DNA of 54,093 nucleotides from a virus. Lineage: Duplodnaviria; Caudoviricetes. A program made the translations under genes and the position numbers. Where the stretch lies: IMG/VR virus record IMGVR_UViG_3300032301_000602, positions 1 through 54,093 of that record; one strand, 5' to 3'. Every line of letters begins with the position of its first letter. Positions within the stretch are counted from its first letter, which is position 1. This document shows positions 10,695 through 50,950 of the stretch, piece after piece. The notes below the pieces were generated by a model. The model did not search any database. It had not been told where the DNA came from and saw nothing but the letters and a program-made list of their open reading frames with translations.

Positions 10695-11669
10695 ATGTCA
10701 TCACTTTCGCTTGGACTTGCCATAGAGAGACTCCCCTCTTCCGTCATTCCCGTTGCAGATCCTCCTGATCTGGCGGGGTTTGATGCTGGGGTTGAACTGC
10801 GTAACAACATCAACCGCTTTCTGGAACGGGTGTTGAGCGAGGGCAAGTGGGAAGGCACTGTGGTTCAGGCACTTATCTCAGCCTACGAAGATGTGGATGA
10901 GAACAAGTTTATCACTTTGCCCCGTCACTTGGAAACTTGCTTGCGTGGCGGTCAACTGGGCTACAAGACCCGCGCCGTTCAGAGCGAATGGTATCAGTAC
11001 TTACCCCAAGGGCGGGGCATCCGTAAAGAAGATCAGGCTTACTTTGGTCCGTTGCAGGACATGGGGAGTGGGTTTCTTACGTTTCGGGATTTGCTTACTC
11101 CGTCAACCCTAACTGTTTCCACCGATCAAACCGAATGTGCCGGATCTGAGATCATCATTCGCGGAAAAGATTCCAGTGGCAACAAGATCTATTCTTTAGT
11201 GGATGGAGAGCCGATTGAGGGAATTAGGTTCGACATGGCCACCGGAACCCAGACTTCTGCCCAAACATTTGCGGAGATCTATGGTGTGGAGAAGACCCTG
11301 ACCAAGGGCAACATCACGCTTGCTGCTGGCGCAACCACCCTCGCTAAATACGAGGCAGGGGAGAGGGCGATAAACTATCGTCGCTATCTGGTAGACAAGA
11401 GTTGGGATGCCGTCCAAGGTATTTTCAAACGCCGCCATGTGTGGGCAGTGAGCGACAATGATCCCCTCTATCCCGACAACCTAGAGGCAATCAAGCTTGG
11501 TCTCATGGCCCTGAACGCCGAAGACAAAGCGGATGTTGAGCGCGGCCAATACTACATGGACAGAGCGATTCTACTTTTAAACGCCGAACTAAAAGAGTAT
11601 AACGCAGGGCAAGAAGGGGTTATGCAAATCGCCCCTTGGCTAACCCGACGAATGATTAACATGACCTAA
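10695..11669 (+). CDS. Putative tail/adaptor structural protein
   Basis: 324 aa; helical ends around a beta core; heads the internal-virion operon (inference from position). Confidence 0.45.
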   Translation: MSSLSLGLAIERLPSSVIPVADPPDLAGFDAGVELRNNINRFLERVLSEGKWEGTVVQALISAYEDVDENKFITLPRHLETCLRGGQLGYKTRAVQSEWYQYLPQGRGIRKEDQAYFGPLQDMGSGFLTFRDLLTPSTLTVSTDQTECAGSEIIIRGKDSSGNKIYSLVDGEPIEGIRFDMATGTQTSAQTFAEIYGVEKTLTKGNITLAAGATTLAKYEAGERAINYRRYLVDKSWDAVQGIFKRRHVWAVSDNDPLYPDNLEAIKLGLMALNAEDKADVERGQYYMDRAILLLNAELKEYNAGQEGVMQIAPWLTRRMINMT

Positions 11670-32817: not shown

Positions 32818-33548
32818 TTAATTTTCCTCCGTTGCTTTAATTGCTTGCCATGCGTTGCTGATCGCATCCTCAAGCATTCTCTGCATGGAGGAGTCTTCAG
32901 CTTGTTCTGGTTCGATCATCTGCACAAGATGCTTCAACACTTTGCACAATTGCTGTTCGTTTGCGCTCACAGTGTCTTTCCTTTCGATGGGGCCGAGGTC
33001 ACTGTATACCATTGCTGTTTTTTGGGTTTCATTGGTCTTTAATCTCCCGTTGCAATTTCTCGTATTGTTTTTGTAGGTGCTTTGCGGTCTCTGACTCGTC
33101 GCCAGAGTAGTCGTTGGCAAGAGAGATCGCCTCTGCTGCTAATGACATTGCCTTGTATAGTGCTTGTTGTGTTTTGGTTTTCATTGGGTCTTTGGTTTTC
33201 TGTTGTGGTTTATTTGTTGTCTTCTAATTCGTCTACGCAGGCTTTAATCATGTCGAGATAGTATCCTCCGAGCTTGAAATCCCGCGCATCCTCATAGCAG
33301 CAGCATCCGAGGTAGTCAGATGCCTCCACGCCATGAGAATCCCGCACAGTGACTTTGGCCGTGAACCATGCCCACTGATCCCCAGACTCAAGGCGAGCAA
33401 TGATCCTATCCTCATAGGCTTTGTCTTCCTCGTCTCCCCAAGCAGAAACATTGCCTATGACTGTGACTGTTTCCGGTAGTGCCTCCAGTGTGATATCATA
33501 CTCACGCTCATAGGCTTTGATTAGGTCCTGTTCTGTGGTCTTCATCAT
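32818..33548 (-). other. Small early genes 32818-32970, 32967-33032 (21-aa mini-ORF), 33029-33184, 33210-33548
   Basis: Overlap-coupled ORFs with CA-rich leaders. Confidence 0.5.
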
Positions 33549-33727
33549 AGTGTTTGTCCTTTCGATGGTGCGGCAGCTACGATTGACTGACATGCGGAAC
33601 GTGTTGCTGCCTCGACCTTCATTAATGTGTCCTCACTGACTCTGGTAAACTTGTGGTGGCGTGTCTTGGAGGCATGGTCCAAGAGGTACTGCTTCACGCT
33701 TTTGACTGTGATTAGTTTGCTGCTCAT
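33545..33727 (-). CDS. Histone-fold-like protein, copy 2
   Basis: LITVKSVKQYLL..RVSEDTLMKVEAATRSACQSIV.AAPSKGQTL; same length (60 aa) as copy 1. Confidence 0.55.
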   Translation of the reverse strand: MSSKLITVKSVKQYLLDHASKTRHHKFTRVSEDTLMKVEAATRSACQSIVAAAPSKGQTL

Positions 33728-33731
33728 AAGA

Positions 33732-34172
33732 TTATCCAAAGACAACATCTCCCCAGAGGCACAGTTGAAGAAATACATCTCCGGTCTCTGCATCGTCGTT
33801 GTCGTTCATTAGGTTTTTGAAATGGTGGGACCATTTGCCGCTTGCCAGTAATTGCAATCCGGCGCGAATAGTTCCGAGATCGAGCAGACCATCTGGCATG
33901 GATTCCTCATCATCTCCCACGATCAGATATCCTCCCCTGTTGGTGGGGAAGTCTGTGTAGCTTGTGGGCTTCTCCATGAGGTCTGGCATATAACGGAACG
34001 TGAATTGCTCCGGTGCTTTCTTGACTTTGATATGATACCAGTAGTTACTACCTCCCTCGAAAGCGCAGCAGAGCATGTCTGCGACTCGCTCAAGAGGGAC
34101 CTCGACTTCTGTCGTTACCTTAAACGACTGACGTAACTGGTTGTGTTTATTTGCGGTGGTTGTGGTTTCCAT
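33732..34172 (-). CDS. Hypothetical early protein
   Basis: AFEGGSNYW..DDAETGDVFLQLCLWGDVVFG, a recurrent phage family. Confidence 0.65.
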   Translation of the reverse strand: METTTTANKHNQLRQSFKVTTEVEVPLERVADMLCCAFEGGSNYWYHIKVKKAPEQFTFRYMPDLMEKPTSYTDFPTNRGGYLIVGDDEESMPDGLLDLGTIRAGLQLLASGKWSHHFKNLMNDNDDAETGDVFLQLCLWGDVVFG

Positions 34173-34176
34173 AAGA

Positions 34177-34392
34177 TTAGTTGGTTTGTAATTTGAGGTT
34201 CTTTTCTTCCATAGCATAAGCAGAATTCTCCAGAGAAGTATTCAATGTGCGGAGGGTATGCCAGATGCTATCCAATCCCTTCTTGTCGAAGGATGAGAGT
34301 AGCTCCATGTCCACCTCCCAAAGCATGTCTGCCATAGCACCGACTATCATGGCGGCTTTGCGAGTTTCTTTGATGGTGGTTGTGGTGGTCAT
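34177..34392 (-). CDS. Hypothetical early protein
   Basis: First gene after the 34419-34446 promoter. Confidence 0.55.
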   Translation of the reverse strand: MTTTTTIKETRKAAMIVGAMADMLWEVDMELLSSFDKKGLDSIWHTLRTLNTSLENSAYAMEEKNLKLQTN

Positions 34393-34418
34393 GGTGGTTG
34401 TGACTTGTTGTGACTTTG

Positions 34419-34467
34419 ACTGTATTGGGTTGGACATAGTATGCAAGTAAAAAATACAAAATATTTA
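34419..34467 (-). promoter_or_regulatory. Sigma70-like early promoter with AT-rich UP element
   Basis: TTGCAT-N16-TACAGT preceded by AATATTTTGTATTTTTTA. Confidence 0.6.
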
Positions 34468-34473
34468 AGGGAG

Positions 34474-34502
34474 AAAAGGGGAGCGGGAAAATCCCGCCCC
34501 CC
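34474..34502 (-). terminator. Intrinsic terminator
   Basis: GGGGGCGGGA-TTT-TCCCGCTCCCC-TTTT. Confidence 0.65.
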
Positions 34503-34509
34503 TAACCTA

Positions 34510-34767
34510 CTAACGTCTGCTCGCCATAGCTTTAAGCTCGGCCTTGATCCGCTTCGCATTCTCGCCCCGCCATGATGACGCATTGGACAGGAAATAAAGC
34601 ACGATTGACCGCGCATCGTCGTATCCATAGTTGTCATCGATGGAGTCGAGACCCATCATGGCAGACAGATATGGCTTTGCAGCAAAGTTGACTTTCGTCC
34701 AATCTCGCCTTATCTCGCTGGCAATGGTGGAGAGACTACGCTTTTCGGTTTGGTTTTTTGTTATCAT
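34510..34767 (-). CDS. Conserved phage early protein
   Basis: RSLSTIASEIRRDW..AAKPYLSAM..LYFLSNASSWRGENAKRIKAEL. Confidence 0.7.
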   Translation of the reverse strand: MITKNQTEKRSLSTIASEIRRDWTKVNFAAKPYLSAMMGLDSIDDNYGYDDARSIVLYFLSNASSWRGENAKRIKAELKAMASRR

Positions 34768-34791
34768 ATATGGTTGGTTGTTGGTTGTTGT

Positions 34792-35496
34792 TTATTCATC
34801 ACCACCGGAGGTCAGCTTCGCTTTAGCTGTCTGGTAACCATGAGCAGTGATGAAAATATGGGGAAGGGGTTTGCTCCGGCTTGCGGTGCGTCTGTTGCCA
34901 TCGCACAATCCGCATTGCTTGCAGGTCATTCCCTTTGCATCCGCCAGACATTCGATTCCGGTGGCAGGTATGGCATGCGGCACAACGGAAAAGGTGCGAA
35001 GACCGAGAGATTGTGCCTGTCTAAAGTTGCCAACCTCCGTTGATGCCATGAAAAATTGACCATAGGCCTGTGCTGTCTCCACGGGCATTAAATGCCAGTC
35101 ATGGAAATAGCCTGTGATCTTTTTTGCTTTGCTGGCAATGTCTTTGACCATGTCAAGAGGAATTAGTGACGGATTCCCATAGGCTCCAAAGCGCACAAAT
35201 TCCACCGAAAAGAAAGCATCCCATTCCGGTGATCCCATGAGGAGGGGTGGATATCCTCCCCTCTGGAATTTACGCCAGATCGAGGAGAGAGGATTGGCGT
35301 TAACATAACATCCGTTGCCACTGGCGAATCTGCAACCCATGCACTGGTTCTGTGCGTCATGTCCTGTTTTCCTTGACTCTACAGGGTGCATGCTTGCATC
35401 AAGGATCCAAAGTTGCACAGACTCGCCTGTCTTCCGGTTTGCACTGTTCGCAGTGGCGATGACGATGACTGACTCGGTTTGGTGTATAAGGTACAT
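34792..35496 (-). CDS. Cys-rich early protein (possible Fe-S/radical-SAM-like fold)
   Basis: NRKTG..CMGC..GCYV..VRFGAYGNP..GYFHDW..C..CKQCGLC. Confidence 0.55.
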   Translation of the reverse strand: MYLIHQTESVIVIATANSANRKTGESVQLWILDASMHPVESRKTGHDAQNQCMGCRFASGNGCYVNANPLSSIWRKFQRGGYPPLLMGSPEWDAFFSVEFVRFGAYGNPSLIPLDMVKDIASKAKKITGYFHDWHLMPVETAQAYGQFFMASTEVGNFRQAQSLGLRTFSVVPHAIPATGIECLADAKGMTCKQCGLCDGNRRTASRSKPLPHIFITAHGYQTAKAKLTSGGDE

Positions 35497-36389: not shown

Positions 36390-37385
36390 ATGAGTAAACA
36401 TTTCGCACCGCTTAAAAACAGAAACACGGTTAACACGTTTTTCAATATCCATATTGTTAAAAAGGGCCTTACTGATCGCTATAGCTTTCTCTATCGGAAG
36501 GCTGGGTTTGGTAATCCAGAGGGCCATGAGTTTCGATTGTGGTGCAGGAGCCAGTATTGCGAAGAAATGCGTCAGGACAGGTTTATGGGATTGGTTCGCA
36601 AGCTATCGGCCCGTTGCCAAAACCACAGGTTTCAGAAGGTTAACAGGGTTAAGTTCTCTACAGCTTCAGGACCAATTAAGAACAGGTATAAGATAGCCCG
36701 TAACAAGGCCATTACTTGGAGTCTATACGAGGATATTCGCAAAGCTTGGATTGCTATGCATCCAGAGGGGACACAGAAGAGGGGGATGGGTATACAGTTT
36801 ATTCACTTCATAGAGTCTTGGATTCGGGATTTTAAGGTCTACCATGAGCATGATGGGTTTATGGGGGATATACAGAGAGAGATTAATAAACTACAAAAGG
36901 TAGAGGAGTTAGAACTGGATAATTTTGCTTCGGCCTTTTGGTCGGATGCGACAGTAACCGATGGCAACAAGATCTGTTACGAGAACTACCGCAAGGGTCT
37001 TGGCAGGAAACAATCTCGCAGGGCATACCACCTATTGATGGACATTTATAAGAGATACTATGGAGACAGACTTGTTAGTCCAGACGCCCGTAGACGCCAC
37101 TCTCAGAGAAGGCGCACATTAAAGTCTGCTAAAAAGGACTCTAGGGTTCGCACAAAGATCCTTGCAATCAATGCTGGGCCATGTAAATGCTATTGGTGTG
37201 GGATTTCTTTGCCTCAAGGTGGACACGCTGACCATGTTGTGCCATTGTCCAAGGGTGGTAGCCACACTTGTGATAACATAGTAGCCGCCTGCAAGATATG
37301 CAACGAGACCAAGAAAGACACGATGCCCGACTCCAAGGATCTTCCGATTCACATGGAGTTACAGCTACCCTTAATCCACAACTGA
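36390..37385 (+). CDS. HNH endonuclease with long N-terminal extension
   Basis: CYWCG..HADHVVPLSKGGSHTCDNIVAACKICNETK. Confidence 0.85.
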   Translation: MSKHFAPLKNRNTVNTFFNIHIVKKGLTDRYSFLYRKAGFGNPEGHEFRLWCRSQYCEEMRQDRFMGLVRKLSARCQNHRFQKVNRVKFSTASGPIKNRYKIARNKAITWSLYEDIRKAWIAMHPEGTQKRGMGIQFIHFIESWIRDFKVYHEHDGFMGDIQREINKLQKVEELELDNFASAFWSDATVTDGNKICYENYRKGLGRKQSRRAYHLLMDIYKRYYGDRLVSPDARRRHSQRRRTLKSAKKDSRVRTKILAINAGPCKCYWCGISLPQGGHADHVVPLSKGGSHTCDNIVAACKICNETKKDTMPDSKDLPIHMELQLPLIHN

Positions 37386-37827: not shown

Positions 37828-38367
37828 TTATTCCGCGCTGGCCAGCTTCTGGAACCCTACCACGGCTACCCCGTCTTTCTCATGGGGGGACTTGCCTTCG
37901 GGGAAGTGGAGGTCGAATCGTCCTGTCAGGGGTTTGCCGAACTTACGGATAGCCTGCTTGTCCTGCATCGTCCTATCCTCCCACCGTCTTTCCATGGTTG
38001 TTCCGTCTGATAGGGTGATTAGGACTTTGTCCTTGGGTTTGATTCCGGCTTCTTTGAACTGCTTTTCGATGTCTGGGCTTATGGCCATACCCTGTGGGGA
38101 TATCTTGCCGAAGCTTCCTATCCAGTTGCGGCTATTGGTATCGGTATAGGGGTCTCCCTTCCAGTTGTAACTTGTGATCTTTCCAAGAGGCTCTCTGGGT
38201 TCGGGGTTTGGGGGGGTTCTGCTCTTAGAGATGGTGATGCTGGGCTCAGAAGGGGGTTGTGGGGCGGTTTCGGGGAACTGGGGGGACGGAGGGGCTGGTT
38301 CGTCAAAAAACCCGTCTAGGGCCTGTTTCAGCCTTTCCCCCACCCTTGCGATAATGCCTTGTTCCAT
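37828..38367 (-). CDS. 3D/RlpA-like double-psi-barrel protein (possible peptidoglycan-lytic)
   Basis: Pro-rich linker then KITSY..MAISPD..DKVLI..WEDR..RFDLHF. Confidence 0.5.
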   Translation of the reverse strand: MEQGIIARVGERLKQALDGFFDEPAPPSPQFPETAPQPPSEPSITISKSRTPPNPEPREPLGKITSYNWKGDPYTDTNSRNWIGSFGKISPQGMAISPDIEKQFKEAGIKPKDKVLITLSDGTTMERRWEDRTMQDKQAIRKFGKPLTGRFDLHFPEGKSPHEKDGVAVVGFQKLASAE

Positions 38368-38452
38368 AGCAACCTTATACCATAAATATGTCTACGTTGT
38401 AAACATGTCTAGGGGGATGTGTATATATTTCGGGGTTTTATCGACACGTTGC

Positions 38453-38725
38453 TTATTCGTCCTGTAGGAATACTGGGGTCTGGTCTCCGACAAAGGCTCC
38501 TGCGATGTTGTAGTCGAAATATTCAATTGCCTCTTCTCTGTCCATACCCTGACGCATTAAGTTCTTTATTGTTTTCTTGTACGAGTAAATTGCTACCGCA
38601 TGGGAGAACTGTCGGCCTATACCTAGAAATGCTGACTCTAGCCCGTCTGCTAGAAGTACTGTTTCGTCTTCTCCTAGCTGTTTGCCTATCTCTTGGTCTA
38701 TTAGTTCGTGACCTGTGGGTTTCAT
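38453..38725 (-). CDS. Conserved phage hypothetical protein
   Basis: LLADGLESAFLG..EEAIEYFDYNIAGAFVG..TPVFL. Confidence 0.7.
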   Translation of the reverse strand: MKPTGHELIDQEIGKQLGEDETVLLADGLESAFLGIGRQFSHAVAIYSYKKTIKNLMRQGMDREEAIEYFDYNIAGAFVGDQTPVFLQDE

Positions 38726-39054
38726 TAGGTTTCGGGGTCTGGGGTCAAGGGGCCCAAGATGATGGGTTGCGGGAGCAGGAAGGGCCTTTGGGAGGACTTT
38801 CTGCTGGTGGGCTTGCGTTGATACCCCACAATGCACAAGTTGCCATCTACGGGGTTGTAGATGGGAATGAGGTGGCCTTTAGCTAGTAGCTTTTGTAGTT
38901 TGGGCATATTGTTTCGGGGTTTGGGGGTGTGCTTGGCTACGTTGCGGTCTTGCTTTATTCCTATTTGTTTTGCTTTCATAAATGAAATCGTAGTTGTCCC
39001 GATACTTCGGGCCATTCACTTTCCTTGCTTTGCTTCCTTTGCCTGCCATAAAAT

Positions 39055-39528
39055 TTATTTGCTGATGGTGTGCTTGACTAGTGCGCCCCCCATGGGGATA
39101 AATCCATTCTCCCTGACAATCTTTCCCCCATTGATCGTCTTCTGGGTTTCGGTGAACTCTCGGCGTATCTCCGCCTTACTTAGGTTTGCTATTAGCAATA
39201 CATCATCATCTACCAAATAGAGGAATCCATAGAGGGGAACGCAGAATTGCTCTGCCATTTTCAACCCCGACTCCAACTTCTCCCAAGTAACCAACCACTC
39301 GTTGTGGAACTTGTGGCGGAAATCTTGAAGGGTTATGTTGTAACGACACTTGGTTTCGGCCAGACCAATGATCTCCTCCCCCCTTGTGAGAATAGCATCC
39401 ACCTTGGCGGGACTATCTTTCGGGGTTTGGAGGTAGAAGTGGTCCTCTTTACGATTGAACCAACGCGCAACAATCTGCTCGTCTTGCAAGCTAACTTGCC
39501 CCTTGGGAGTGGCGATGTCTAGGCTCAT
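39055..39528 (-). CDS. PD-(D/E)XK nuclease-like protein
   Basis: KVDAIL..LAETKCR..LVTWEK. Confidence 0.6.
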   Translation of the reverse strand: MSLDIATPKGQVSLQDEQIVARWFNRKEDHFYLQTPKDSPAKVDAILTRGEEIIGLAETKCRYNITLQDFRHKFHNEWLVTWEKLESGLKMAEQFCVPLYGFLYLVDDDVLLIANLSKAEIRREFTETQKTINGGKIVRENGFIPMGGALVKHTISK

Positions 39529-39534
39529 AGAAGT

Positions 39535-39563
39535 ATAGACCCTTGGTTCGCGCTTTCGTTCAA
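39535..39563 (-). promoter_or_regulatory. TTGAAC-N17-GTCTAT promoter, leaderless
   Basis: ATG 39528 lies 6 nt after GTCTAT. Confidence 0.7.
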
Positions 39564-41415: not shown

Positions 41416-41450
41416 ATAGACAAGTAACCCGCCGATTCGTTCAATGTCAA
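41416..41450 (-). promoter_or_regulatory. TTGAAC-N17-GTCTAT promoter nested with TTGACA
   Basis: TTGAAC at 41444-41439, GTCTAT at 41421-41416, ATG 41408 7 nt later. Confidence 0.65.
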
Positions 41451-42833: not shown

Positions 42834-43727
42834 TCAGCGTCTCCTCTTCCCCGCGAGTTTTTTCTTGGTGAGTTTCGATTGTGACATCGCCTTCACCTTC
42901 TTGACGGGCTCAGTGCCCCAGCCAGTGACAAGTCCTGATAACTTCTTTGCGTTTTGGGCGAACCACTTGGAGTCAGCGAGGAACATTTTGACCGTAGGGT
43001 GATACTTCTTCATCCGCTTTAGTTTGGTAATGCTTTTTTTGTCCATCCATCCCTTGACTTCGTGGTAAACAACATCTCCATTATTTTCGATCACTTTGAA
43101 GTCTGGCAGATAAGAGCAAACTCCGCGCCTTATTCCATCAAACCAAAATGTTTCTGGCTCATGCTGCCATGATTGAATGGCCCCATTGGCGCGTAGCCAA
43201 TCCAAGTAGTAGGCGTAGTTAGACTCCCAAAGGCTGCGAGCAAAAATCTCTTGGTCTCCTATTTGGTGCCATCCGTTCTTACAGCGGGAATATCCTCCAT
43301 AGTGGCTAAATCTATTGCGAATTGTCATTGTTCTTTTCTTTGTTGATCCCAAGGTTGCACACGATGTTGAGCAAAACCTTCTTTTATTTGCCATGGACGG
43401 TATCACGCCAAATTCTTTATGGCAATATTCACAGTTAAGTTTTGCTTTGGGTGCCTCAACCCTTGGACACTTTAGCAAGATTTTTTCGGATGTGTATTTG
43501 CCGCAACAGTTTCTAGAACAGAAAATCCCGCGAGGCGACTTGGTGGTTATCGGAAAAACCTTGCAACACCTTTTGCATGTTCCGTTCCCGCGATCTTTGC
43601 GGTTGTTATCCTTTAGTCGCTCCTTGTCATTGTATGCACATCGATGGGAGCAGTAGACCCTGTTCTTGGTGCCCTTGAATTCCCTGCCGCACTGTTTGCA
43701 CTTGTGATTAAAAGATATACATTTCAT
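42834..43727 (-). CDS. PD-(D/E)XK endonuclease with repeated CxxC..CSxxC zinc fingers (homing-type)
   Basis: Three C2-C2 repeats; RSLWE..YLPDF..HEVKGW. Confidence 0.75.
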   Translation of the reverse strand: MKCISFNHKCKQCGREFKGTKNRVYCSHRCAYNDKERLKDNNRKDRGNGTCKRCCKVFPITTKSPRGIFCSRNCCGKYTSEKILLKCPRVEAPKAKLNCEYCHKEFGVIPSMANKRRFCSTSCATLGSTKKRTMTIRNRFSHYGGYSRCKNGWHQIGDQEIFARSLWESNYAYYLDWLRANGAIQSWQHEPETFWFDGIRRGVCSYLPDFKVIENNGDVVYHEVKGWMDKKSITKLKRMKKYHPTVKMFLADSKWFAQNAKKLSGLVTGWGTEPVKKVKAMSQSKLTKKKLAGKRRR

Positions 43728-44960: not shown

Positions 44961-45004
44961 AGGGTGTATATTGACCAACAAACCTAACTCGCGTTCAATC
45001 TTCG

Positions 45005-45274
45005 TCAACTCTTCTTTTGGCGCGGTCTCCTTGGGGGTCGCGCTTTCTTTTTCTGCTCCCTGTGGAAAAGTTTGTGGCAGACCTTGCATAGGCAGATCAG
45101 GTCATCAAGGTGGTTTAGCTCGTCCCCCTTATGCTCGTAGGTTCGGTGGTGGGCTTGAAGTTCTAGGGGGCTATTGCATACCCCACACCTCCAGCCGTAG
45201 CGTTTCTTGACTAGTCGGCTTACCTCCTTCCAGTAGGGGGTTTTCAAGTAGGCCCTGTAAGATTCTTTATCCAC
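45005..45274 (-). CDS. Small HNH endonuclease
   Basis: YLKTPYW..CGVC..LQAHHRTY..DLICLCKVCH. Confidence 0.8.
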   Translation of the reverse strand: MDKESYRAYLKTPYWKEVSRLVKKRYGWRCGVCNSPLELQAHHRTYEHKGDELNHLDDLICLCKVCHKLFHREQKKKARPPRRPRQKKS

Positions 45275-45294
45275 TAAACAATTTTACTCTCTTG

Positions 45295-45323
45295 TTGACA
45301 CTCTGCAACACTGGCGTTACTCT
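45295..45323 (+). promoter_or_regulatory. Sigma70 promoter of RNA1
   Basis: TTGACA-N17-TACTCT. Confidence 0.7.
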
Positions 45324-45329
45324 GTGACG

Positions 45330-45410
45330 ATCCTTGTATCTGGGTGCGGTTCCATTTTGTTGCGGCTGTCTTCCAGACCTCGCTTCGGAGCCGCACCCTC
45401 TTTCTTTTCT
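45330..45410 (+). ncRNA. Candidate small RNA (RNA1): 12-bp stem, 33-nt loop, U-rich tail
   Basis: GGGTGCGGTTCC(45342-53)/GGAGCCGCACCC(45387-98) followed by TCTTTCTTTTCT. Confidence 0.55.
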
Positions 45411-45450
45411 TGACTTAATTTTGAACGTATCGTAGCCTGCGATTGTCTGG
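45410..45450 (+). promoter_or_regulatory. Nested promoters of RNA2
   Basis: TTGACT-N17-TAGCCT (45410-38) and TTGAAC-N18-GTCTGG (45421-50). Confidence 0.55.
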
Positions 45451-45870
45451 AAGGACAGTCGTAAAGTGGACGAGACATACGCCATTAGAACCTGTGACGA
45501 GGTATGCAAGGGTAAAACCGCCGCACTCACAGTTAGCCATCCGTCCCATCGCCTGAACACATTGCGGCGTGGGAATCCAGAGAAAATCTGGTAAGCGCGA
45601 GGGATAATACCCTCGGAGGTTGATTGCGGTTGTTTAAAGGTCTAAGAGCGGCTTCGGAGCCTAGATCGCAGTCTGTGGAATAAAGCGGAGGACTCACCCA
45701 AGAGGAATGAGAATCCAAATTTGACTATGCCTTTGCCCCTGCGGGGGCGAGGTGTGGTCATACGGTAGGATCTAGCCCATAGGAATTATTAATCCAATGG
45801 AGCGGCGTTTCGGGGTTCAAGCCAATAGAGCCGCTGATAACGGCGGGGCGACTGGCCCCAGCCCCGCCTA
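45438..45870 (+). ncRNA. Candidate large structured ncRNA (RNA2, ~430 nt)
   Basis: About ten consecutive hairpins with G-U pairs on the + strand; no credible ORF. Confidence 0.6.
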
Positions 45871-45902
45871 GTAACACAATCGCCATAACCCATAAAAAAA
45901 CA

Positions 45903-45931
45903 TTGAACAAACCCGCATCTATGGTGTCTAT
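45903..45931 (+). promoter_or_regulatory. TTGAAC-N17-GTCTAT promoter
   Basis: A-tract upstream; ATG 45938 6 nt downstream. Confidence 0.7.
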
Positions 45932-45945
45932 TGAACCATGACTAA

Positions 45946-46092
45946 TGGTGGGATCATTGAGGGGCGGCTGGAGATATCTGGACGCAGCGACCTGAGTCCT
46001 ACCACCTCTTTTGGGAGCGGGGCGACCCGGCATGCAAATGCAGAACCAGCAACGATTCGGGGGAATTGTCGTTGGTGCGCCACCCCGTTCCT
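45946..46092 (+). ncRNA. Two structured domains (RNA3 or structured leader of 46103)
   Basis: TGGTGGGATCA/TGAGTCCTACCA stem; GGGAGCGGGG/CCCCGTTCCT stem closing a 3-way junction. Confidence 0.45.
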
Positions 46093-46102
46093 AAATCTTT
46101 CT

Positions 46103-46381
46103 ATGAAATACATACTACTAGCAATAATCGGGGCCAGCGTAAGCTATGGCCAGCAGTTCAACGGAACCATTGTGGACTTGGACAGTGGACGCATCCAGAG
46201 ATTTCAAGGTCAAACAATTGACCGAGACCAAGACCATCGTGATCGTATGGCAAACTATGATCGAATGATTGCGGAAACTTATGCCTCTATCGAAGCAATG
46301 AGGCAGGAAGGTGAAATGCAGCAGCAGACCTACGAGCTTCGCAAGCAGACCGAATTACTACGAAAGATTGCCAATGAGTAA
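46103..46381 (+). CDS. Secreted/periplasmic protein
   Basis: Signal-peptide-like MKYILLAIIGASVSYG then coiled coil. Confidence 0.6.
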   Translation: MKYILLAIIGASVSYGQQFNGTIVDLDSGRIQRFQGQTIDRDQDHRDRMANYDRMIAETYASIEAMRQEGEMQQQTYELRKQTELLRKIANE

Positions 46382-47021
46382 CTATCTCAACGTCAACATC
46401 CCCGTTTTCTTTGCCTTTTTGGATACGGGATTTTTGTACGATACTGAAGCTAACGTAGACAACGAAAGGATTGTGGTTGAAGTATTCAACTACACATCCA
46501 TCCCACAACGCTGTGGGCTGTTCAGCGTTATGACTGAGTACGGAAGTCAACACGCAAGAGTCCCGATCCATTACCTCCATACAGACGAAACTGGAGGGAC
46601 CAGCTACCCTTTGGACTGGATACAGCTTTGGGATTCGATGAGCTACTACTGCTCTTCGGGGATTGTGGACTACTGCAAGAATCGCGGGGCGAACATCATG
46701 CTTAAAGACCGTACCCTGCACAAAGCCCAATACATGTTTACCTTGGACTGGTGCCTTGGACCACAGTATCAATCGGGCTACGGGGAACTGGCTGCTGGTC
46801 ACAAGTGCGGCCATGTCTTTAAGGGAGATGGGCAATTTTTTATCCAACCCAACAACCGAGTCCTTTGGATGGACGGCGGATCGTTTATCGCCAAGTCCTT
46901 TCCAGCAAAGCCCGACTGGAAGGTATTCAGTCAGGATTTTAGTTGCGAGGACACAGGAAGCCGCTGGGTTAGCGAAAGCGACGAAGAGCTATGGTTCTAC
47001 GAATTCAAAGAGCGTGGATAG
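46374..47021 (+). CDS. Conserved phage hypothetical protein
   Basis: YLNVNIP..QLWDSMSY..YMFTLDW..HKCGHV..QPNNRVLW. Confidence 0.7.
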   Translation: MSNYLNVNIPVFFAFLDTGFLYDTEANVDNERIVVEVFNYTSIPQRCGLFSVMTEYGSQHARVPIHYLHTDETGGTSYPLDWIQLWDSMSYYCSSGIVDYCKNRGANIMLKDRTLHKAQYMFTLDWCLGPQYQSGYGELAAGHKCGHVFKGDGQFFIQPNNRVLWMDGGSFIAKSFPAKPDWKVFSQDFSCEDTGSRWVSESDEELWFYEFKERG

Positions 47022-47260
47022 GAATCGCATTACTTGTTACAAGTGGTTGTGTTTCCTATCCAAGGCCCTATCCTTGGAATTTTCCCGAAGCAAGGGAGTG
47101 GAATCAGCCCTTGGAGTTTAGCTGGGTCAATGCGGTGGACAACTACCGCAACCTAACCGCACCTAAAGAGAAGATTTGGAATCCTCTTGTTCGGGACTAT
47201 GAGCCTGACTTTGGAGCGGAACTTTATCGGGATGTTGAAGAGCATGAAATGTATCAATAA
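46991..47260 (+). CDS. Putative lipoprotein
   Basis: WIGIALLVTSG|C lipobox. Confidence 0.5.
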   Translation: MVLRIQRAWIGIALLVTSGCVSYPRPYPWNFPEAREWNQPLEFSWVNAVDNYRNLTAPKEKIWNPLVRDYEPDFGAELYRDVEEHEMYQ

Positions 47261-47552
47261 TCCATCCTTGCTTACGGGCCTCAATTCCGTTCTCATGGAC
47301 GGCATTGTGACAGGATCGACAGAGCGCAGCAAAGTATTCATCAAGGCAAAGCCACTTGCCAACCCTTCCGGCCCTGTGATGGATGTCTGTCGCCTTGGAC
47401 TCCTTGCATCTCTGGCATATTGGGTGGAGAGCGAGGTAGGTATTGCGAACCTGTGTATACTCCTTGTACTCACGTTGGCGTTTGGTGGATGCATTCCGCA
47501 ACCTGCCTTTACTTTTAAGTGGGGTTCGGCGTTTTAAGGGCGATCTTTTCAT
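47163..47552 (-). CDS. HNH endonuclease
   Basis: MKRSPLKRRTPL..CQRC..DIHH..ALCRSCHNAVH. Confidence 0.8.
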   Translation of the reverse strand: MKRSPLKRRTPLKSKGRLRNASTKRQREYKEYTQVRNTYLALHPICQRCKESKATDIHHRAGRVGKWLCLDEYFAALCRSCHNAVHENGIEARKQGWIIDTFHALQHPDKVPLQSQAHSPEQEDSKSSL

Positions 47553-47580
47553 TGAACGAAATCCGGCATTTGCTGTCTAT
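47552..47580 (+). promoter_or_regulatory. TTGAAC-N17-GTCTAT promoter, leaderless, heading the dnaB operon
   Basis: ATG 47587 lies 6 nt after GTCTAT. Confidence 0.7.
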
Positions 47581-48175: not shown

Positions 48176-49147
48176 ATGAACATCGTCTTTGCCTACCATA
48201 GTGGAGACTGTGAGTTGGCCTTGGAGAGTGCCAAGGCTATTGTGGAACAGGGTGTAAACATCCGCCACAAGGCCACAGTATGCTGCACTGAGGGAACCCC
48301 GCTACTTCCGCAAATTACGGAAGAGCTAAAGAAGGTATTCCCAGAGGTTGGTGGGATTATCGCTCAAGACGGATTCAATGGATGGCCCCTTGGTCCCAAT
48401 CAAATGTTTGCTGACGCATCTTCCCATTGCTACCAATACGAAGACCCTTGGTACTTTTGGGAACCGGACTGCGTCCCTATGACTGAAGGGTGGGTTGACA
48501 AGCTGGAGGAGGAATTCAACAAGAATACGGGCAAGATCATGGGATGCTTTATTGAGGGCGGGGTGGCTCCGAGTGGTAAGATTATGTATCAACTCATTGT
48601 CTGGAGTGCTGTTTATCCGTCAAAATTTCTCAATGGGTGCAGGATTGCGGCCAATCTTTACAACTACAACATCTACTTCAAGGACAAGAATGTGGTTCCC
48701 GAACCTTGGGATGTGCGTTGCCGCTGGGAATTCCTTCAGTATGGGCGAGACACGCCGCTTATCAGAGCCTACTGGAAGAGTTGCAACTACCAACGCAAGG
48801 GAGAATCCATTGTCTTTTTTGCCGAAAACGCCGAAGCTCAAGACGTTCAGAATGTTACCTGCCCAGACCGCACCGTAAGCCCCAAGGCCGTTGTAGTCCA
48901 CGGGTGCAAGGACGGATCTCTCCACCGGATGATCTACGATAAATATATCCCTCCTGTTTATGTGGAGATTGAACAACCGGAGGAAATCGTTGTCCAACCC
49001 CTACAATCGAAGGTCACCTTTGTGGCCAGCGACAACAAAACCGAATCGGATAAGTTTTTGGCCAACCTGAGATCACTAGGTAAAACCTTGGGCAAGCCAA
49101 AGAAATCCCGAAAGAAAAAGAAACCACAATGCAAACAGAACAAGTAA
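48176..49147 (+). CDS. Glycosyltransferase-like protein (paralog of 22813-23598)
   Basis: GWPLGPNQMF, WYFWEPDCVPM..WVDKLEEEF..IMG, SAVYP, VVHGCKDGSL. Confidence 0.55.
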   Translation: MNIVFAYHSGDCELALESAKAIVEQGVNIRHKATVCCTEGTPLLPQITEELKKVFPEVGGIIAQDGFNGWPLGPNQMFADASSHCYQYEDPWYFWEPDCVPMTEGWVDKLEEEFNKNTGKIMGCFIEGGVAPSGKIMYQLIVWSAVYPSKFLNGCRIAANLYNYNIYFKDKNVVPEPWDVRCRWEFLQYGRDTPLIRAYWKSCNYQRKGESIVFFAENAEAQDVQNVTCPDRTVSPKAVVVHGCKDGSLHRMIYDKYIPPVYVEIEQPEEIVVQPLQSKVTFVASDNKTESDKFLANLRSLGKTLGKPKKSRKKKKPQCKQNK

Positions 49148-50472
49148 TCTACGAACAGTCAGCAGAAACCGCCATCCTGTCCTGTCTCTTCCACGGGGCG
49201 GTAGAAGACCAAAAGGAAATCATTTCAACAATCAGGGAAGACCACTTCTTTGTCCATGAACACAAGATCATCTTCAACTCTGTTTTAAGGACTATTGGTC
49301 GCGGCATCCATGCGGACTACATCAACATCAAGAACGAGCTTGAGGGCAACAAGCAGCTAGAAGAAATCGGAGGGGACCATGTGTTGACGGAGATTGCCTC
49401 CTTCTGTCCCAACGCCCACAACTGGAAGCGTTACTATCCCAAGCTGGAAGAGGCTCGCTATCGCAGGAGTTTGGAATACTTGGCATCCGACATGATATGC
49501 AAGGCGCGGGATCGGGATCTAAAGCTTGAGGAACTCAAGAACTGGTCAGAGACCAGCGTAATGAAGGCCGACTACCTGATAGACAATACGGACCAGCTAT
49601 CGATCAAGGGAGTGGTGGAGAGGGCCTTGGACAATATTGAGTCCACCATGAGGGGCGAGCCCAAGATCGGTATCCGCACAGGTCTGGTTCCGGTGGATGA
49701 TCTTCTTATGTTCGGGATGCGCGGTGGAGACATGGTGGTTCTCGCTGCCAGACCAGCAGTTGGCAAGACCAGTGCTGCCATGCAGATTGCCGAACATGTG
49801 GCCTTGGACCTGAAGAAAAGGGTGCTGATGTTCTCGCTTGAGATGACCAGCGTTGCCCTAATGGAGAGAATGATTCGGAGTCGAGCCAGAGTCCGCGCTG
49901 CCGATATCCTCGCTCAGTCTATTACTCCGTATCAGAAACAATCACTAGGCAAGGCTTACGAGGAGGTTCGGGATTCCAACATCTTGTGCGATGACACCTC
50001 TGGCAAGTCCATGGGGTACATCAAGTCCATTGCCCGTCGAGCCCACCAGAAAGAGCCGATTGACCTGATCATCATTGACTACCTCCAGCTTCTCAAGGGA
50101 GACAGCAAGAGGGCCAAAGACAACCGAGTCAATGAGGTCGAGGAGATTAGTGGCGGGATCAAGGAACTAGCCAAGACTCTGAAGGTGCCAGTTTTAGTTC
50201 TCGCCCAACTTAACCGCGACCCCGAAAAAAGAGGGGGAAGGCCAAGCCTTTCAGATCTCAAGGGATCTGGAGCCATTGAGCAGGACGCCGACATGGTGAT
50301 GATTCTTCACTGCGATGAAGAGGATGCCAAGAGCCACACCCAAATCCCAACCGTGGAATTTATTGTAGCCAAAAACAGGGAGGGAGCAACTGGTGTCTTG
50401 CCAATGAGTTTCAATAAGTCTATAACTAGGTTTGAAATTCTTAATAAAAATGAAAGACAATTTAACTCTTGA
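49129..50472 (+). CDS. dnaB: Replicative DNA helicase
   Basis: LAARPAVGKT, FSLEM, IIIDYLQL, LAQLNR, SDLKGSGAIEQDAD, VAKNREG. Confidence 0.95.
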   Translation: MQTEQVIYEQSAETAILSCLFHGAVEDQKEIISTIREDHFFVHEHKIIFNSVLRTIGRGIHADYINIKNELEGNKQLEEIGGDHVLTEIASFCPNAHNWKRYYPKLEEARYRRSLEYLASDMICKARDRDLKLEELKNWSETSVMKADYLIDNTDQLSIKGVVERALDNIESTMRGEPKIGIRTGLVPVDDLLMFGMRGGDMVVLAARPAVGKTSAAMQIAEHVALDLKKRVLMFSLEMTSVALMERMIRSRARVRAADILAQSITPYQKQSLGKAYEEVRDSNILCDDTSGKSMGYIKSIARRAHQKEPIDLIIIDYLQLLKGDSKRAKDNRVNEVEEISGGIKELAKTLKVPVLVLAQLNRDPEKRGGRPSLSDLKGSGAIEQDADMVMILHCDEEDAKSHTQIPTVEFIVAKNREGATGVLPMSFNKSITRFEILNKNERQFNS

Positions 50473-50950
50473 GCGCGTTACTGAACTTTTTGAATACTCC
50501 TATTCAAGCGGTAACCTTATTCGCAAAAAATCAACATCCGCCAATGCTAGAAAGGGAGATATTGCTGGATATTTTAATATGGCTGGATACAGAAAAACAT
50601 CAATAGACGGGTTTCAGTATTACAATCATCGCCTTGCTTGGTTGTTGGTCAACGGCAAGTGGCCCCAGAAACAAATCGATCACATCAATGGAGACAAGGG
50701 AGATAACAGGATAGAAAACTTGCGAGAGGCATCTGTAAGCGAAAATAGTCAAAACAGATCAAAGCAGTCAAATTGTTCTAGTGGTGAAAAATGTATCTGG
50801 TGGAAATCGGACAGACAAAAATATCGTGTTCGTGTTGGCGTTGGCGGGAAATATCACCATATAGGATATTTTAAAGACCTAGAAGATGCCATTGTTTCTC
50901 GCGACAATGCTATCAAAAGATTGCACGGCAAGTTTGCCAAATGCAATTAA
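50450..50950 (+). CDS. HNH-AP2 homing endonuclease
   Basis: HRLAW..IDHINGDKGDNRIENLR..N..N; AP2-like YHHIGYF..A..R..LHGKFA. Confidence 0.88.
   Translation: MKDNLTLERVTELFEYSYSSGNLIRKKSTSANARKGDIAGYFNMAGYRKTSIDGFQYYNHRLAWLLVNGKWPQKQIDHINGDKGDNRIENLREASVSENSQNRSKQSNCSSGEKCIWWKSDRQKYRVRVGVGGKYHHIGYFKDLEDAIVSRDNAIKRLHGKFAKCN

Follow-up and report, generated by a model that had tools for sequence, protein, structure and literature searches.

The stretch of DNA analysed here, called the window throughout, is a linear IMG/VR virus record of 54,093 bp (IMGVR_UViG_3300032301_000602; Caudoviricetes) with an estimated completeness of 74%. This report concerns the gap at positions 45275-46102, which separates a leftward from a rightward operon, and the structured RNA predicted to be encoded within it. 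The following protein genes adjoin or follow the gap.

45005-45274, minus strand: HNH-like open reading frame (ORF) of 89 aa, the first of the leftward operon; the next gene, for an HTH protein, overlaps it.
46103-46381, plus strand: first protein gene of the rightward operon (92 aa, from its translation), with a signal-peptide-like N-terminus and without a visible Shine-Dalgarno sequence.
46374-47021, plus strand: gene of the rightward operon for a 215-aa protein, used here as a marker.
49129-50472, plus strand: DnaB gene of the rightward operon, about 3 kb downstream of the RNA locus.

As judged from comparison with related loci, positions 45445-45868 (ends +/- ~15 nt) almost certainly encode a real, independently promoted, structured plus-strand RNA of about 420 nt that represents a new family. 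The locus as a whole comprises at least two transcription units and an upstream terminator. The carriers are a group of lake phages of about 70 kb, uncultivated so far; a blastn search of the window against 50,697 phage records gave no cultured-phage match, and the closest cultured-phage DnaB is at most 34% identical.

Relatives were gathered via the 215-aa marker protein, which gave 182 related stretches in IMG/VR, of which 80 were fetched; two invariant motifs of the RNA retrieved further loci (32 and 43 viral stretches plus 20 metagenome stretches). Loci are given L numbers below. The RNA region was located in the fetched loci by blastn and then with an iterated nhmmer profile. For the RNA core (45465-45800), 46 distinct full-length homologous cores were obtained from lake viromes, and these fall by nhmmer into six sequence classes (W-like; L005-like; L082; L037/L055/L139/L004; L044/L060; L141/L143). 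Two covariance models with hand-set helices, R1 for the 5' domain and R2 for the 3' domain, were built from close classes and used to align all classes; class D was detected by nhmmer and not by R2 at E<=0.01. The sole genome match to the class-A pattern, in Aliidiomarina sanyensis (L113), was confirmed neither by nhmmer nor by R1 or R2 and was treated as chance.

The predicted fold of the RNA has two domains and nine or more helices (P1, P2 and P4 to P9, plus P10 and P11). Its elements, all on the plus strand, are as follows.

45438-45463: variable 5' hairpin (GATTGTC/GACAGTC), present in each class with differing sequence and compensatory changes, by eye.
45465-45469 with 45482-45486: helix P1; 5 of 5 pairs change on both sides, and the loop carries a conserved GACAUAY.
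45492-45497 with 45527-45532: P2, the helix with the strongest support; all 6 of its pairs show changes on both sides.
45537-45544: junction CCAUCCGU, with AUCCG kept in nearly all classes.
45545-45553 with 45566-45573: P4; 5 of 8 pairs change on both sides.
45577-45591: short hairpin P5; 5 of 5 pairs change on both sides.
45598-45615: hairpin P6 (CGAGGG/CCCUCG); 4 of 6 pairs change on both sides, and 100% of cells pair.
45622-45629 with 45666-45673, and 45638-45640 with 45660-45662: P7; 6 of 8 pairs in the first segment and 2 of 3 in the second change on both sides.
45693-45711: P8 (CUCA/UGAG and two inner pairs); 3 of 6 pairs change on both sides, with a conserved AGGRAUG.
45722-45760: hairpin P9 of 17 bp; 7 of 17 pairs change on both sides, and 99.2% of cells pair.
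45761-45868: 3' part with a conserved AUCUAGC tail; it holds P10 and P11 and is the probable 3' end region of the RNA.
45801-45835: hairpin P10, kept with compensatory changes, by eye.
45842-45868: G+C-rich hairpin P11 without a U-run, kept with compensatory changes, by eye.

Over all modelled pairs, 43 of 64 change on both sides. For the 5' domain (R1, 45462-45620; P1, P2, P4, P5 and P6), 50 matches were aligned, 98.0% of 1335 cells are paired and 25 of 30 pairs have changes on both sides; none of 500 shuffles reached the observed values, and pairing fell to 29-47% in controls in which the partner was slid by 1-3 columns. For the 3' domain (R2, 45616-45800; P7a, P7b, P8 and P9), 46 matches were aligned and 98.6% of cells are paired; changes on both sides are seen for 18 of the 34 pairs, 0 of 500 shuffles did as well, and the slid controls gave 37-49%. 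The many pair types per column (for instance UA/CG, GC/AU and AU/CG in P2 and P5) would be hard to explain without covariation.

The helices are set off by near-invariant unpaired stretches, namely GACAUAY, AGGUAUGCAAGGRUAAAACCGCCG, AUCCG, UAAAGCG, GGAGGU, YUCGGAGCC and AGGRAUG, the second of which is enclosed by P2 and the YUCGGAGCC of which is universal at the tip of P7. The tip of P9 is also invariant (GCCCC-loop-GGGGC), and the tip of P5 takes insertions of 70-100 nt in some relatives (L020-type and L048-type). Two further contacts are conceivable: GUAUG inside P2 may pair with CAUAC of the P1 loop as a loop-loop contact (three pairs invariant, two varying without compensation), and UCCG of the junction can potentially pair with CGGA at the P7 tip (45655-45658; three of four pairs invariant, the fourth in 45 of 46 sequences). 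A further candidate, P3 (45537-45544 with GCGGAGG at 45685-45691), was dropped as a family-wide long-range helix; it is confined to classes A and B and L082. Its outermost pair is formed by C-G in 27 sequences and by U-A in 8, and classes C and E have lost its 3' strand. The variable 5' hairpin overlaps the GTCT promoter element described below and may be either a 5' hairpin of the RNA or a DNA palindrome.

Within the paired columns, 279 cells hold G·U or U·G and 4 hold A·C or C·A, and therefore the plus-strand RNA is the folding strand. Folding energies point the same way: for the whole gap (831 nt) the plus strand gave -305.4 kcal/mol (z -5.29; none of 20 shuffles as good) and the minus strand z -1.56 (1 of 20), and for the RNA proper (45445-45870; 426 nt) the values were z -2.97 (0 of 100) for the plus strand and z -1.93 (2 of 100) for the minus strand. 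The comparative evidence outweighs these energies as support for the RNA. A protein-coding gene was rejected for the RNA core: no frame is kept open across the 46 distinct cores, in which the longest stop-free stretch spans 44-97 aa (median 66.5; about 110 possible) in varying frames and on varying strands.

An initial annotation, drawn from the letters of the window, had already noted a locus with no credible ORF and mismatches that read as G-U on the plus strand, and the homologs agree on both counts. Its stems at 45544-74, 45577-91, 45598-615, 45622-73, 45690-716 and 45722-60 coincide with the covarying helices P4 to P9 almost base for base, and those at 45438-63, 45801-35 and 45842-68 are kept with compensatory changes, as judged by eye only. 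Its CATAC/GTATG stem (45476-506) corresponds to the possible loop-loop contact between P1 and P2. The CTGTGA/TCACAG pairing, which it had described as a pseudoknot, is retained as a pairing (all six pairs change on both sides) and loses the label, since it forms the firm helix P2.

The proposal that this is a new large phage RNA is upheld by the strong covariation, the strand-specific fold and searches against known families. A cmscan run against Rfam 15 gave nothing at gathering scores in the whole window, and at E<=10 the region 45000-46400 gave only chance-level hits to sau-6072 (E 2.1) and MIR1919 (E 6.1). GOLLD, ROOL (for rumen-originating, ornate and large) and MISL are thus unmatched insofar as they are included in Rfam 15. 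The statement that the RNA is neither tRNA, tmRNA nor RNase P is likewise consistent with the absence of an RNase P match in that region at E<=10 and of any tRNA or tmRNA call by ARAGORN in the window; as a positive control, ARAGORN and the Rfam models do find tmRNA in the distant relatives L066 and L076. A CsrA-type sponge (CsrB/RsmZ) was considered and rejected: the RNA has 12 GGA compared with 10.2 +/- 2.2 in 1000 dinucleotide shuffles (259 as high), and 6 A(N)GGA compared with 5.3 (447 as high). Complementarity of the RNA to the rest of the window amounts to 11-12-mers at about the chance number, and an apparent cluster of such matches is the genome-wide octamer CCCCGAAA.

This octamer occurs at 19 sites in the window compared with 2.65 +/- 1.5 in dinucleotide shuffles (sites including 8662, 38268-39425, 44744, 44912, 45808 and 53420), and in coding regions it often reads Asn-Pro-Glu.

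Full-text literature searches for the invariant strings returned only unrelated primer matches, and searches on large phage non-coding RNAs returned nothing relevant apart from the ROOL/GOLLD paper (PMC12286853). A catalogue of 8,495 candidate structured RNAs from IMG/VR has been published (Fremin et al. 2023, PMC10690425), and part of the present RNA may already be an unnamed candidate in it.

The regulatory features of the gap are as follows.

45275-45340, both strands: spacer with TTGACA (45295, plus strand) and TTGCAG-16-TAAAAT (minus strand), read by eye and not called by the promoter scan.
45341-45408, plus strand: intrinsic-terminator-like hairpin GGGTGCGG...CCGCACCC followed by TCTTTCTTTTCTT (U-run), from the sequence.
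45410-45449, plus strand: promoter of the RNA, TTGAAC (45421-45426), an 18-nt spacer and GTCTG (45445-45449), kept in all six classes.
45903-45931, plus strand: second promoter (TTGAAC-N17-GTCTAT), assigned to the rightward operon and its leader; invariant in alignment A1.
45938-46102, plus strand: structured leader of 165 nt, with a hairpin between CAUUGAGGG and AGCGACCUGAG (45946-46004) and then a branched element.

The initial annotation had treated the locus as a single RNA of ~770 nt; this did not hold, and an RNA of ~420 nt is instead followed by the separately promoted leader. Of its promoter sets, those at 45410/45421 and 45903 are corroborated by conservation, TTGAAC-N17/18-GTCT preceding both the RNA and the leader in all six classes; a simple consensus sigma-70 scan called no promoter inside the gap, and this consensus may not be that of the host. 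The RNA promoter is overlapped by TTGACT (45410-45415)/TAGCCT (45433-45438), and the minus-strand site in the spacer could drive the leftward operon. TTGAAC-N17-GTCTA is found four times in the window (39536-39563 and 41417-41444, minus strand; 45903-45930 and 47552-47579, plus strand) compared with 0.18 expected, each copy being oriented along its genes and two leftward units being preceded by one; its departure from the sigma-70 -10 consensus suggests that the host or the sigma factor may be unusual. The terminator hairpin has a compensatory variant, GGGCGGGG/CCCCGCCC, in L005, L009 and L012 (class B). An A-run lies 3' of P11; it is attributed to the second promoter, because it also precedes this promoter in phages that lack the RNA.

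The second promoter and the leader are found in loci with and without the RNA alike, so that the leader is independent of the RNA. The branched element of the leader (46010-46095) has a GNRA hairpin and a G-rich loop. The leader's fold gave z -2.51 (2 of 200 shuffles as good), and the leader has no Rfam match. A 147-aa ORF from the ATG at 45938 was not kept: it stops after 43-68 aa in at least nine relatives, and it is not in a constant frame with the first protein of the rightward operon, whose homologs start at MK..LLL, while the nucleotide motifs CAUUGAGGG, AGCGACCUGAG and GGGGAGACCCG(G)CAUGCAAAUGC stay constant across the frame breaks and the hairpins between them change compensatorily, by eye.

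Contigs inside the RNA gene were found in two RNA-library runs from different studies. One run (X19, whose RNA label is a guess) contains a 215-nt contig identical to 45650-45862, and the other (X20, a wetland metatranscriptome) contains a 151-nt contig that covers 45677-45826 with 2 differences, and a short piece of the leader. Neither run has a contig on the flanking protein genes or on 45445-45650, which is uninformative with assembled contigs.

The slot of the RNA is occupied by a different gene in some relatives. Twenty-eight loci are syntenic by their flanks, with the HNH-like gene on one side and the leader plus the small-protein gene on the opposite side. The RNA cassette fills the slot in 19 of them and a minus-strand gene of 165-181 aa in nine, never both and never neither; 24 loci with neither cassette, which are incomplete upstream or belong to other phage groups sharing the marker protein, were left out of this count. 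The 165-181-aa gene matches PHROG 4707, 'replication initiation protein' (E 1.9e-13 to 3.5e-15), PHROG 186, 'DnaD-like helicase loader', and, weakly, Pfam HTH_36; the matches cover only the N-terminal DNA-binding part of initiator families of 300-450 aa. Beside it, TTCTCACA occurs twice, 23 nt apart, and once more in inverted orientation at a distance of 91 nt; an A+T palindrome is also present.

L019 5380-5640 and L016 5060-5330, initiator-type phages: region of the TTCTCACA repeats, candidate iterons or operators.

The exclusion extends to whole contigs. The initiator-like protein is absent from five of five RNA-type contigs, three of them 91-100% complete, and was found as a positive control in all five initiator-type contigs, none of which has the RNA signature (two are complete with terminal repeats). 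The cassette types were confirmed by nhmmer on a complete contig of each type (G004, RNA-type; G006, initiator-type); these two share their gene order around the slot, and their flanking proteins have 66-97% identity. On a tree of a neighbouring gene the cassette label needs nine changes, at least seven of them forced by supported branches, and labels are no more clustered than shuffled labels; two loci (L019 and L035) are near-identical on this tree, yet have different cassettes. The two cassettes thus behave as interchangeable alleles.

Other RNA genes lie nearby in some relatives. A tRNA-Met gene on the same strand is found within ~550 nt of the RNA in eight fetched loci (L009, L044/L136, L046, L048, L085, L123 and L132), and in L009, L046, L048, L085, L123 and L132 it is upstream of the terminator; because of this arrangement, the terminator at 45341-45408 is read as probably the end of a tRNA-Met unit that was kept in relatives and lost from the window phage. 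In 18 fetched loci, a tmRNA-like acceptor/T-arm minihelix of the Ala type lies just after a TTGAAC..GTCTAT promoter.

L139 891-957; also L020, L021, L023, L026, L030, L041, L055, L120, L123, L132 and L133, plus duplicates: minihelix.

It has the form GGGGGAG..GGWUUCGACG..short hairpin..GGAC-T arm-CUCCUCCACCA; by eye it contains a G3:U70 pair, and it has no mRNA-like domain. It is called neither by ARAGORN nor by Rfam at gathering scores, and it is absent from the window. True tmRNA genes are present in the two distant relatives (L066 4594-4951 and L076 5137-5495; tags GNNQLALAA and GTTQLALAA), together with tRNA-Ile, about 1 kb upstream of the shared gene for the 215-aa marker protein. L066 also has a group I intron match at 11253-11441. 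The RNA is one of several RNA genes at a divergent early-promoter region, the others being the tRNA-Met, the minihelix and the structured leader.

For the function of the RNA, our tentative preference is a folded RNA particle that acts in trans and is connected with translation or tRNA biology, or else with self-assembly. The RNA would be made early in infection and act in trans as a stably folded particle, with its invariant loops as binding sites for a conserved partner (in all likelihood a component of the translation or tRNA machinery) or for the RNA's own copies; its mode of action would resemble that proposed for the ROOL and GOLLD RNAs of phage tRNA islands. A conserved binding partner is inferred from the long invariant unpaired stretches, and a trans-acting RNA is favoured because the neighbours (tRNA-Met, the minihelix and the distant tmRNA) recall the tRNA-island setting of ROOL and GOLLD.

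PMC12286853 describes ROOL as several hundred nt in size, with many covarying helices and probable pseudoknots, as often near tRNA genes and as having no known protein partner, and places the GOLLD example env-38 downstream of a Met-tRNA. Like ROOL, the present RNA is phage-encoded and several hundred nt long with many covarying helices, and tRNA-Met and the minihelix adjoin it in some relatives; unlike ROOL, it has no model match at E<=10, has other helices and motifs, and has so far been found only in uncultivated lake phages. It shares with GOLLD its origin from lakes, its location on phages, in some relatives near tRNA-Met, and a conserved part combined with a variable part that takes insertions, and differs from it in the lack of a model match, in having about half the size and in sharing no motifs; GOLLD expression rises during lysis. 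Like tmRNA (~350 nt), it is phage-borne, and true tmRNA lies near the same marker gene in L066 and L076; unlike tmRNA, it is without an acceptor stem, T arm, CCA end or tag reading frame.

Several points weigh against a trans-acting particle and the evidence for it. Most RNA-bearing loci, the window included, are without a tRNA nearby in the fetched flanks; the RNA has no sequence or model similarity to ROOL or GOLLD, and its 420 nt compare with ~580 nt for ROOL and >800 nt for GOLLD. The alignments behind the covariation were fitted to their own models, the sequences are related, many compensatory cells stem from few lineages, and the shuffle counts are not probabilities. Termination at P11 is assumed, P11 being without a U-run, and the RNA-library contigs indicate presence only, not strand, ends or level, and those of X19 may derive from DNA. 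Finally, a trans-acting RNA leaves the either/or relation with the initiator-like gene unexplained.

That relation is the strength of the main rival, a replication-origin RNA, which we regard as possible and rather doubtful. Here the cassette would replace a DnaD-like origin-binding protein and its iteron region, and the transcript, positioned by its fold, would act at its own gene or close to it as a primer or by forming an R-loop, in the manner of ColE1 RNA II, or would recruit the phage DnaB helicase; replication would thus begin with no protein initiator. In its favour are the allele-like swap with an initiator-like gene and iteron-like sites (19 versus 9 of 28 loci), the mutual exclusion over whole contigs (the protein in 0 of 5 RNA-type, the RNA in 0 of 5 initiator-type), the at least seven forced exchanges and the DnaB gene 3 kb downstream. 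Furthermore, no initiator was recognised among nine scanned proteins of G004, which include 7 of its 22 specific ORFs of at least 90 aa; with this coverage, and with the window and several contigs incomplete, an initiator may have gone unrecognised. Against this rival, sharing one physical slot gives mutual exclusion whatever the functions, each cassette seems to carry a promoter for the leftward operon, and this by itself could account for a slot that is always filled, and the ~180-aa protein, which matches only the N-terminal DNA-binding part of initiator families, may be a regulator. The long invariant single strands suggest binding of a partner rather than a hybrid with the template of the RNA itself. 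Neither iterons nor an unwinding element rich in A+T were seen in the RNA cassette, and the A-run that follows P11 belongs to the promoter (it is present in initiator-type loci). GC skew gave no origin signal at the locus.

The RNA resembles ColE1 RNA II in being a folded transcript of several hundred nt with its own promoter, in a slot where replication initiation might be expected; it differs from it in that its unpaired stretches are invariant across classes and that no hybrid-forming or origin signature was identified. A counterpart of the antisense partner RNA I was not seen at the RNA locus, where no dedicated search for it was made. The ColE1 RNA II-like primer role, raised as an option in the initial annotation, gains circumstantial support from the either/or swap. 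In its strongest form, this explanation has the RNA cassette stand in, with no protein involved, for a DnaD-like initiator and its iteron origin, the two being swapped by recombination among near-identical lake genomes; we consider this unlikely.

A ribozyme or RNA-processing RNA, with RNase P-like activity on the phage tRNA-Met or minihelix precursors or with self-processing activity, would suit the compact multi-helix fold, the invariant junctions and the tRNA-like substrates encoded alongside in some relatives. The strings AAACCGCCGA, GGUAAG.GCGC and GCCUAGAU presumably recur in E. coli M1 RNA, as compared by eye, which is a lead and not a test. There was no RNase P, intron or ribozyme family match at E<=10, none of the P4-type motifs that define RNase P RNA was seen, and tRNA-like genes are absent from the fetched flanks of most phages with the RNA; we therefore hold this explanation to be improbable.

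Quite improbable, too, is a function in cis, with the RNA as 5' leader or attenuator of the rightward operon, or a role in regulating the divergent early promoters in place of the winged-HTH protein of the alternative cassette. The RNA is upstream of the rightward operon and co-oriented with it, read-through is possible at P11, which has no U-run, and the alternative cassette encodes a DNA-binding protein that adjoins repeated sites; however, the conserved promoter at 45903 stands between the RNA and the operon, and the operon does not need the RNA in cis, because initiator-type phages keep the same leader and operon without it. That there is no RNA at all, and that the region between the divergent operons, very conserved at the DNA level, is a DNA element (for example an origin, an operator array or a packaging site) or a series of hairpins due to chance, has next to no probability given the tolerance of G·U and not A·C (279 versus 4), the pairs that change on both sides (43 of 64), the 70-100 nt insertions accepted at a helix tip and the RNA-library contigs on the locus.

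Further observations were made in the vicinity. At least five HNH or endonuclease VII-like genes lie within 15 kb (36390-37385, 42834-43727, 45005-45274, 47163-47552 and 50432-50950), and in L038 an HNH-AP2 homing-endonuclease gene is inserted between the RNA and the leader; by its predicted gene content, the region around the RNA locus is a mobile-nuclease hotspot. The plus strand has a terminator-like hairpin followed by a T-run at 45019-45054, within the overlap of the minus-strand HNH-like and HTH genes; it could stop antisense transcription or be due to chance. In G004 (33246-34883; L153 13246-14883), the homolog of the 215-aa protein has 545 aa; the insert has matches to several PHROGs, ribonucleotide-reductase among them, and is suggestive of an intein or of a domain fusion.

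Large bacterial and phage RNAs with complex folds and open functions are rare, and each class (OLE, GOLLD, ROOL, raiA) has opened new biochemistry. The strengths of the present case are its unusually clean comparative support, a compact size for structural work and a defined promoter. It also offers a natural experiment, since near-identical sister backbones carry either the RNA or the initiator-like gene, so that the role of a big phage RNA becomes directly testable. Should the origin explanation prove true, a lineage of tailed double-stranded DNA phages would start replication with a dedicated folded RNA, acting as primer, R-loop former or helicase recruiter. The locus itself, with the RNA, a second structured leader and the minihelix in relatives, points to an RNA-rich control region in abundant lake phages.

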